The position numbers and the translations under genes were made by a program. Shown here in pieces: positions 10,625-11,892 of a stretch of DNA of 64,000 nt. The notes under the pieces are model-generated. The model saw nothing but the letters and a program-made list of their open reading frames with translations. It did no database searches and was not told the origin of the DNA. Origin of the DNA: Candidatus Pacearchaeota archaeon (GTDB lineage Archaea; Nanobdellota; Nanobdellia; Pacearchaeales; GW2011-AR1). How positions within the stretch are numbered: position 1 is the first letter of the stretch; each line of letters opens with the position of its first letter. The stretch is taken from NCBI GenBank assembly GCA_050124795.1, contig JASFEO010000002.1, positions 26,797 to 90,796 of the forward strand, read 5' to 3'.

Positions 10625-11892
10625 ATGACAAAATTTAATCCTAGAAAACATGAAGTCTTTGATTTTCTAACTTTTGAATATAGTCAGGATTATCTTGGTT
10701 ATGCAAGAGAAATGGATTTTTCAAAAGAAGAAATCAGTGATTTAGAAAGAGGATTAGAAATGGAGAGAAATGGCTGGGGCTTTTTAGAATTTAAAAATTG
10801 TATAGTTTATCAAGGGAAAAAAAGGGAAATAAAAGACAGAACTTATTTTATTGTAACTCCTGATAAAAAAATTGTCCCAACATCTAAATTAAATAATTCT
10901 AAACTTGTCTTTGGAAATCCTGAATCTATTTTATTAAAAAAAGTTGGAGACTATTTTGGAATTTGTAAAATTCTATTAGATGAAACTGCATTTGAAAGAG
11001 CAGGAAGTTTTTAATTTGTAAATTTATCCTGCGAGACCCCAAAACACGCAAAATTTCAAAATCAGATTTTCGCGACAGAATTATTCATCATGCAATTAAT
11101 AATATCCTTGAACCAATTTTCGAAAAGGTTTTTATTTATAATAATTGCGCAAGCAGGAAAAATAAAGGAACTTTATTTGCATTAAAAAGATTTGAAAAAT
11201 TCAGAAGAAAAATAACAAATAATTTTACATCATATGGTTACTGCATAAAGGCAGACATTAAACATTATTTCGAGGAAGTTAATCACGAAATTTTGCTTGA
11301 AGTCTTGAAAAGAAAAATCAAGTGTGAAAAAACTATTTGGCTGTTCAGACGAGTAATCGAAAGGTCTGAGAGAGCGAACAAGTTCGTGGTAGAAGAGAGT
11401 AATTTTGATTCGTCTCTCTCTCTCTCTCTCTCTCTCTCTTCGTGCGGGCTTGAGAGTAAGACGCGGAGTTCTTCATTAACAGCTAAAGGTATGCCCTTAG
11501 GAAATTTAACTTCGCAATTTTTTGCAAATATTTATCTTAATGAATTAGACAAATTTGTAAAACACAAGTTAAAAGCAAAATATTACATTCGCTATGTTGA
11601 TGACTTTGTAATTTTGCATTCTTCCAAAGAACAATTAAAAATCTGGAAAAAAGAAATTGAGATTTTTCTAAAAAATAGATTAAATCTTGAACTTCATCCT
11701 GATAAATCAAAAATTATAAATTTGTCCAAAGGAATTGATTTTGTCGGATTCAGGAATTTTTATTATTACAAACTTTTGAGAAAAAGAAATATTAGAAATA
11801 TGCAAAAGAAAATTAATTTATTTAATCAGGGAAATATTTCGTATGAAAAATTATTTGAATCCTTTGAAGGTTGGAATGCTTATGCAAAATAG
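10625..11892 (+). CDS. DGR-type reverse transcriptase, reading frame broken by apparent 1-nt frameshift at T5 run 11008-11012
   Basis: Frame-1 ORF 10996-11892 has RT motifs: PKTRKISKSDFRDRIIHHAINNILEPIFE; LGNLTSQ matching the DGR [ILV]GxxxSQ form; YVDD; GIDFVGFR. Frame-2 ORF 10625-11014 has WGFLEFK and AFERAGSF as in DGR RT N-termini. One extra T would give ...AGSFLICKFILRDPK in a single frame. Confidence 0.8.
11413..11438 (+). repeat. (TC)13 dinucleotide microsatellite inside the RT coding sequence
   Basis: 26 nt perfect TC repeat encoding SLSLSLSLS within a 38-aa insertion between RT motifs 2 and 3. Confidence 0.95.

Follow-up and report, generated by a model that had tools for sequence, protein, structure and literature searches.

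A perfect run of thirteen TC dinucleotides lies within the reverse transcriptase (RT) gene of a diversity-generating retroelement (DGR) on the stretch analysed here, 64,000 nucleotides of a Candidatus Pacearchaeota archaeon contig (JASFEO010000002.1; hereafter the window, with positions counted from its first letter). We propose that this (TC)13 is a slippage-prone microsatellite that toggles the reading frame from within a loop free of constraint at the protein level, and that it belongs to a class of runs spread across the RT clade; we put the probability of this reading at about 0.6. As assembled, natural alleles differ in their unit count and accordingly keep or lose the reading frame, the loop holds a strong concentration of runs, and the out-of-frame alleles checked at the DNA level are otherwise intact. 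We infer that the switching would be reversible and fast, and that the runs would be kept by selection as a switch. The copy in the window is a defunct remnant, truncated and nonsense-bearing, and not a working switch. The broader proposal, that the DGR RTs of DPANN archaea are phase-variable and that runs in the loop separating motif 2 from motif 3, and in certain subclades behind the catalytic YVDD or directly behind the start codon, stochastically switch hypermutation, is one that we hold tentatively, at somewhat short of even odds. The features on which the argument is built are as follows.

10996-11892, forward strand: DGR-type RT open frame as assembled, 298 codons, with an RVT_1 domain (E=3.3e-26), YVDD and LGNLTSQ.
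11359-11484, forward strand: motif 2a region, a loop of 42 residues lying between RT motifs 2 and 3, versus 4 residues in Brt, the RT of Bordetella phage BPP-1.
11368-11386, forward strand: degenerate copy, in forward orientation, of the purine run usual in the family: GAGAGAG-CGAAC, then AA-GTTCG, a palindrome (CGAACAAGTTCG).
11413-11438, forward strand: the perfect (TC)13 microsatellite, encoding SLSLSLSLS at residues 140-148 of the open frame.

The gene was identified as a DGR RT by its RVT_1 domain, the catalytic YxDD and the DGR-typical motif 4, (I/L/V)GxxxSQ. Its best match among solved structures is Brt (PDB 8ub7, E=4e-32), and all of its close relatives derive from metagenome-assembled genomes (MAGs) of Nanoarchaeota, Pacearchaeota or Woesearchaeota. 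The initial annotation had described a perfect 26-nt TC run at 11413-11438 that is translated as SLSLSLSLS. Direct reading and Tandem Repeats Finder (13.5 copies extending to 11439, 100% matches) confirmed the run, and translation in the RT frame (open from 10996 to 11892), where the run sits within ...ERSERANKFVVEESNFDSSLSLSLSLSSCGLESKTRSSSLTAKGMPLGNLTSQ, confirmed the peptide. A scan for all short repeats found no other dinucleotide run of five or more units in the 64-kb window, whose G+C content is 31.4%. Chance cannot produce (TC)13, and the gene thereby displays one trait of contingency loci, a long perfect repeat inside an open reading frame (ORF) above chance expectation. When the unit count was changed in silico from -4 to +4, the frame was kept only at -3, 0 and +3, corresponding to 10, 13 or 16 units, in agreement with the earlier prediction that any change other than a multiple of three units would frameshift the RT. 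The window copy with its 13 units is in frame at the run, and unit changes decide between a full-length and a truncated product, a second trait of such loci.

A natural allele with a different unit count was found by a search with an N-terminal RT profile. The protein P0139 (MGD9275687.1, 216 aa), encoded on a 100,753-bp contig of a Pacearchaeota MAG (NCBI/JGI), retains a complete N-terminus, matches the window protein at every residue between FILRDPK and the repeat, and terminates in the tail ...SLSLSLSLSLRAGLRVRRGVLH*. Adding one TC to the window DNA, giving 14 units, reproduced the last 152 residues of P0139 exactly, and no other change between -4 and +4 did so. The tract length therefore differs between close genomes, 13 versus 14 units with 152/152 residues identical, a third trait of contingency loci, and on this match P0139 is the putative product of a sister allele that has an intact 5' end, 14 units and a frameshift. 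A more distant relative, L294 (Nanoarchaeota GCA_042570085.1), has a homologous loop, GAGAGAGCGAACAATTTCGTGGTAGAGAG...(TC)8...GTGCGAACTTGAGAGTCAGAG, that is frameshifted, and its N-terminal and C-terminal frames join exactly at the (TC)8. From the comparison of the window, P0139 and L294 it therefore follows that the tract is older than one strain, that its length varies by lineage and that both frame states occur.

Three lineages beyond that of the window also have both in-frame and out-of-frame alleles. The (AG)13 of L082 is in frame, and removal of two AG units yields the exact tail of P0133; the G9 of L003 is in frame, and one additional G yields the exact tail of P0221; and P0070 and P0155, an in-frame and out-of-frame pair, are 99.5% identical. 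The initial annotation had named orthologs without the insertion, combined with a fixed repeat length, as the case that would point to a neutral recent insertion; this case does not apply, since the tract length is not fixed among the public alleles.

The runs recur across the RT clade at one position. We fetched 160 homologous loci, ranked by full-length similarity, and read the DNA of their loops, which contained G7-G11 in 19 loci, (AG)n of 9-27 nt in five and of 28 nt in L161, and C8 in L013. In 150 loci (1.1 Mb, 33% G+C), 19 of the 32 G runs of at least seven nucleotides fell inside the segment from DIKHYF to GMPLGN, which makes up 1.7% of the bases, and every (AG) run of more than five units lay within the same segment. 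At the protein level, 49 of 169 full-length homologues (~29%) have ER-repeat, GGG, SL-repeat or PPP peptides at the loop. The position of the run is thus constant across the clade while the repeat type changes. In 14 loci the G run is immediately followed by CGAA(C), which occurs in all three codon phases (L003, L021, L030, L064, L066 and others), and relatives differ in the frame in which they translate the homologous nucleotides downstream (for example AACGAGTTTTT). This is the trace that repeated slippage followed by compensation would leave.

Among the fetched loci and the protein fragments described below, the purine strand (G or AG) is the coding strand in ~90% of runs. The pyrimidine minority comprises the window (TC)13, L294, the C8 of L013, P0160 and P0178, and the loops of the window and L013, at 72 and 66 aa, are among the longest seen. 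Relatives bear (AG)10-14 where the window has its degenerate purine copy at 11368-11386. Hints of an inverted (AG)n-CGAA element were noticed in the window, where TTCG lies upstream of the run, and in L013, where C8 replaces the usual G run; they suggest that (TC)13 may be an inverted copy of the family's element, with flanks too short for proof.

A second G-run site (G7-G10) was observed just after YVDD (..LLSWGG..) in a subclade without a loop run; it is in frame in L088 (6527), L102 (6554) and L103, and frameshifted in L298 (3216). In L134 (5798), G10 immediately follows the ATG at the RT 5' end, and as assembled this ATG is out of frame with the conserved N-terminus; it may represent a third repeat site, at the classic 5' position.

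Broken alleles were collected in the N-terminal profile search, which listed 120 short RT fragments of 174-300 aa. The search was probably length-filtered, as the query-profile member P0002 is absent from its results and earlier ids reappear in a later search with a repaired query. About 99 of the 120 fragments stop in or just past the loop, 84 of them carrying a repeat-encoded peptide, and 47 end in a +1 or +2 reading of the conserved KGMPLGNLTSQ (..KECL, ..RQFNFxIFC). At least 12 truncated public proteins stop at the second G run after YVDD. The DNA of four lineages has a single frameshift at the run, with both halves otherwise intact.

L284-L293: (AG)10 in the loop, frameshifted, halves intact.
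L294: (TC)8 in the loop, frameshifted, halves intact.
L295-L297: G9 in the loop, in three independent assemblies, frameshifted, halves intact.
L298: G10 at the second site after YVDD, frameshifted, halves intact.

The gene is thus otherwise intact in L284, L294, L295-L297 and L298, whereas the window copy carries a 5' truncation and a TAG.

The site of the repeat varies in length and is coil of low confidence in a structural model. In the alignment with Brt, query residues 9-121 correspond to Brt 65-172 and query residues 164-296 to Brt 177-306, leaving 42 residues opposite 4; the initial annotation's insertion of about 38 aa without a counterpart in Brt is therefore real. The insertion is not a unique trait: the window loop has partial homology to its counterparts in L161 (P0009) and L294 (P0224), and the DIKHYF-to-GMPLGN segment that holds it ranges from 35 to 74 aa among relatives (72 aa in the window). 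In an AlphaFold model with a mean pLDDT (predicted local distance difference test) of 66.7, residues 141-164, which span the repeat and the sequence after it, are coil with pLDDT below 50, consistent with a tolerated surface loop. The length variation among relatives and the low-confidence coil count in favour of a frame-toggling run in a loop that is predicted to tolerate variation.

The mechanism that we propose is as follows. Replication slippage would add or remove units, and unless the number gained or lost were a multiple of three, the frame would shift upstream of motifs 3-7, which include the catalytic YVDD. The resulting truncated RT would be inactive, and adenine mutagenesis of the target would cease until a further slip restored the frame. 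The outcome would be an ON/OFF toggle of the retroelement, of the contingency-locus type.

In the window, this toggle would act on a gene that is already broken. Homologues are 330-400 aa long with ~64 additional N-terminal residues relative to the window RT, in which homology begins at 11021-11023, at about codon 65 of the relatives; no in-frame ATG, GTG or TTG exists upstream of 11293, and tblastn with the homologues and with residues 1-66 of P0139 found no RT N-terminus elsewhere in the 64-kb window in any frame. The window RT is thus not a complete ORF, having neither a start codon nor the N-terminal extension, and no second RT is present in the window. The 3' end is also damaged.

11890-11943, forward strand: TAG replacing the Trp of AYAK-W-ANSY, then 16 in-frame homologous codons (SDSYKLKGKLFRAINVL) and TAA.

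Trp occupies the position of the TAG (11890-11892) in 27/27 aligned homologues, and TAG is a normal stop in this genome, ending 7 of 36 long ORFs; the TAG at 11890 looks like a recent nonsense mutation. The initial annotation had suggested a phase switch of the whole DGR. Of this proposal, a length-polymorphic tract that toggles the frame in nature stands, but the repeat in the window cannot switch the whole DGR, because its RT lacks the 5' ~64 codons and a start codon and contains a nonsense codon.

Several observations weigh against the toggle. A loop free of protein constraint could gather repeats neutrally, and the two lesions of the window RT are what a simply decaying DGR would be expected to show. 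At least 24 contigs, drawn from many samples and projects, carry the (AG)10 allele and are out of frame, and a look-up with the repaired full-length query, which was by exact product and hence biased, found no in-frame allele of this lineage (best match, 70% identical). This pattern argues against rapid switching visible at the consensus level, and a lineage seen only out of frame could reflect a fixed frameshift or recoding just as well as switching. In addition, all 161 of the 161 loci fetched by full-length similarity have single in-frame ORFs. The ratio of ON to OFF alleles cannot be derived from these sets, because the loci ranked by full-length similarity and the probably length-filtered fragments are both biased.

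The most serious rival, which we nevertheless consider unlikely, is that the microsatellite is neutral and the loop dispensable, in a gene undergoing loss, with the frameshifts as ordinary inactivation on the way to a pseudogene. Three independent kinds of damage in the window population, the 5' deletion, the TAG and the (TC)14 frameshift of the sister allele, are in line with such decay, as are the highly variable length and sequence of the loop and the out-of-frame state of the (AG)10 lineage in every contig seen. Neutral decay does not readily account for the concentration of G-rich and AG runs at one site in genomes of ~33% G+C, where they recur as different repeat types, and the out-of-frame alleles checked at the DNA level contain no second lesion. 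The TR/VR comparisons also speak against neutral decay, first in the target gene and its template in the window.

16466-17119, forward strand: DGR target gene, 217 aa, with the variable repeat (VR) at 17020-17104, at its 3' end.
17434-17518, forward strand: template repeat (TR); 15/15 mismatches to the VR are A in the TR.

The window thus has a cognate TR/VR pair whose mismatches are confined to TR adenines, as defines a DGR, without any non-adenine mismatch. In the (AG)10 lineage, L284 and L287, which represent one population sampled twice, carry the same out-of-frame RT and differ by 4 nt in 5.7 kb, all in the VR at TR-adenine positions (2598, 2599, 2604 and 2605). The two VR variants are spread across nine of the ten (AG)10 loci, and the tenth does not reach the VR. 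We therefore conclude that DGR mutagenesis was at work very recently in a lineage whose consensus RT is out of frame. This recent change fits transient in-frame subpopulations, a recoding bypass or recurrent independent slips, and fits poorly with an old dead gene. The RT is identical across all ten loci and hence gives no signal in the ratio of nonsynonymous to synonymous substitutions (dN/dS).

Recoding, in which RNA-polymerase slippage or ribosomal frameshifting on the run would yield some full-length RT and the repeat would set a low level of expression, is in our judgement quite improbable. The (AG)10 lineage, with both halves intact, VR changes at adenine sites only and no in-frame allele found, counts in favour of recoding, and the G9-G10 runs have the homopolymer length at which transcriptional slippage is known. 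However, the 161 fetched loci and the listed full-length proteins, both retrieved by full-length similarity, are single in-frame ORFs, and the shifted alleles occur in both frames. A conserved two-ORF architecture with a stimulatory element, the hallmark of a programmed frameshift, was not found among the loci retrieved in this way, and no stimulatory RNA structure emerged when 11355-11490 was folded, the result being less stable than for shuffled sequences (z = +2.46).

It is very improbable that the tract is a functional nucleic-acid element, whether a structured RNA, an H-DNA-forming polypurine/polypyrimidine tract or a protein-binding site, to which the frame is incidental. The occurrence of CGAA(C) after the G run in all three codon phases, the reading of homologous nucleotides in different frames and the short inverted repeats flanking some runs would suit such an element, but the flanking inverted repeats are inconsistent between loci and the repeat type is not conserved. 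A structured RNA at the site was rejected on the stability of the fold and the lack of an Rfam match at the site, and a conserved hairpin with the run in its loop is disfavoured by the inverted repeats (TTCG..CGAA, AACTCGTT..AACGAGTT), which are inconsistent across loci. An archaeal spliced intron was ruled out, every fetched loop being in frame and translated, and no further copy of the loop exists in the 64-kb window, whereas an in-frame palindromic or mobile mini-insertion resembling the Rickettsia palindromic elements would be expected to have further copies. A scan of viral contigs for G9-CGAAC gave 120 matches, none in an RT loop; these contigs average ~50% G+C, and the matches are due to chance and uninformative.

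A sequencing or assembly artefact at low-complexity sequence, producing a wrong repeat count or spurious frameshifts, is scarcely credible: several fragments end exactly inside a run, and assemblies of the same population break at 11021-11051 and, in Logan contig B (L162), at 11466, but the JGI gene call that spans the run agrees in length with that of the window, identical out-of-frame alleles come from different assemblers and projects (ten loci for (AG)10 and three for G9), and the break at 11466, which lies 28 nt past the repeat, would at k=31 be too distant from the run for a bubble between 13 and 14 units and suggests a nearby strain single-nucleotide polymorphism or a drop in coverage.

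The proposed frame-toggling run resembles known phase-variable systems in several respects. Simple-sequence contingency loci occur in AT-rich, mismatch-repair-poor bacteria. By published accounts, they include the poly-G tracts of Campylobacter jejuni and the CT/AG tracts in outer-membrane protein genes of Helicobacter pylori such as sabA (PMC2715451, PMC8437040). The runs found here share with these loci a perfect mono- or dinucleotide tract inside an ORF of a low-GC genome, similar tract lengths (G8-G11 or 8-14 dinucleotide units), and unit changes that toggle the frame, with both states existing in nature. Unlike those loci, the runs are in DPANN hosts, the tract lies mid-gene in an enzyme loop, whereas theirs lie towards the 5' ends of surface-protein genes, and the gene that would be switched is the mutagenesis enzyme itself. 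A further parallel may be drawn to phasevarions, in which, according to PMC5909438, a repeat inside a phase-variable Type III mod methyltransferase gene stochastically alters other loci; here too a repeat inside an enzyme gene would change the state of other loci, although the effect would be hypermutation of a target protein instead of genome-wide methylation.

With Brt, the window RT shares the RT motifs, (I/L)GxxxSQ and YxDD, and the window has an adenine-specific TR/VR pair; unlike the window copy, Brt has no repeat, has the short loop described above, and possesses the N-terminal 64 residues. Wu et al. 2017 (PMC5758913), with citations of Paul et al. 2015 and 2017, surveyed DGRs in DPANN and candidate phyla radiation (CPR) genomes; their survey covers the same organisms and the same RT clade and describes motif 2a between motifs 2 and 3 of DGR RTs. 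In neither this survey nor Paul et al. 2015 (PMC4372165) did we find simple-sequence runs, frameshifted RT alleles or phase variation mentioned. We found no literature linking DGR RTs to simple-sequence repeats, frameshifts or phase variation in a search that did not cover Paul et al. 2017, so that an earlier mention is possible.

If the proposed toggle is correct, DPANN archaea would control their DGR activity across the population, much as pathogens do their surface antigens by phase variation. It would amount to a two-layer bet-hedging, in which one hypermutable element controls another, and would explain the restraint of DGRs in nature. To our knowledge, little has been established about the regulation of DGR mutagenesis or about what stops it from burdening its host all the time, and DPANN archaea are among the richest carriers of DGRs. 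Since a run of this kind is often the very point at which the RT is split in these lineages, many of their elements will be missed or wrongly scored by DGR surveys that require an intact RT ORF. The runs mark a predictable hotspot of RT inactivation even should they prove neutral.

The remaining features of the region concern the 5' truncation of the RT and the layout of the DGR.

11021-11022: left breakpoint of RT homology; the sequence to its left (129-aa ORF, 10625-11014) is unrelated to the RT.
17218-17436, forward strand: Rfam RT-16 RNA (RF03019), 84.4 bits versus a gathering score of 50, E=1.5e-12.

Logan and JGI contigs of the same population, 100% identical to the window, stop in the region of the breakpoint: Logan contig A ends at 11051, which equals 11021 plus k-1, and the JGI contig starts at ~11023. 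We read this as two co-occurring variants with a common RT body, one truncated by a deletion or rearrangement, which was assembled here, and one with an intact 5' end; alternatively, the junction at 11021/11022 might be a mis-join through the repeated RT segment. The 129-aa ORF ends in AGT TTT TAA (11006-11014), where a -1 slip on the T run would enter the RT frame (..KFLICKFILRDPK), a speculative route to translation of the truncated RT.

The RT-16 RNA lies between the target gene and the TR, ends on the first TR bases and is presumably part of the DGR template RNA. The layout of the window is non-canonical, as an FKBP gene follows the TR and housekeeping genes separate the TR from the RT body, 5.5 kb upstream, whereas the order in relatives (L284, L294, L082) is the target gene with its VR, ~330 nt, the TR, ~30 nt and the RT start. 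Neighbouring genes are archaeal and encode a Tyw1-type radical SAM enzyme, aIF5A and FtsZ. A 116-aa ORF at 9688-10038 is 65% identical to the ORF upstream of the L294 RT, and the position of the RT is syntenic.

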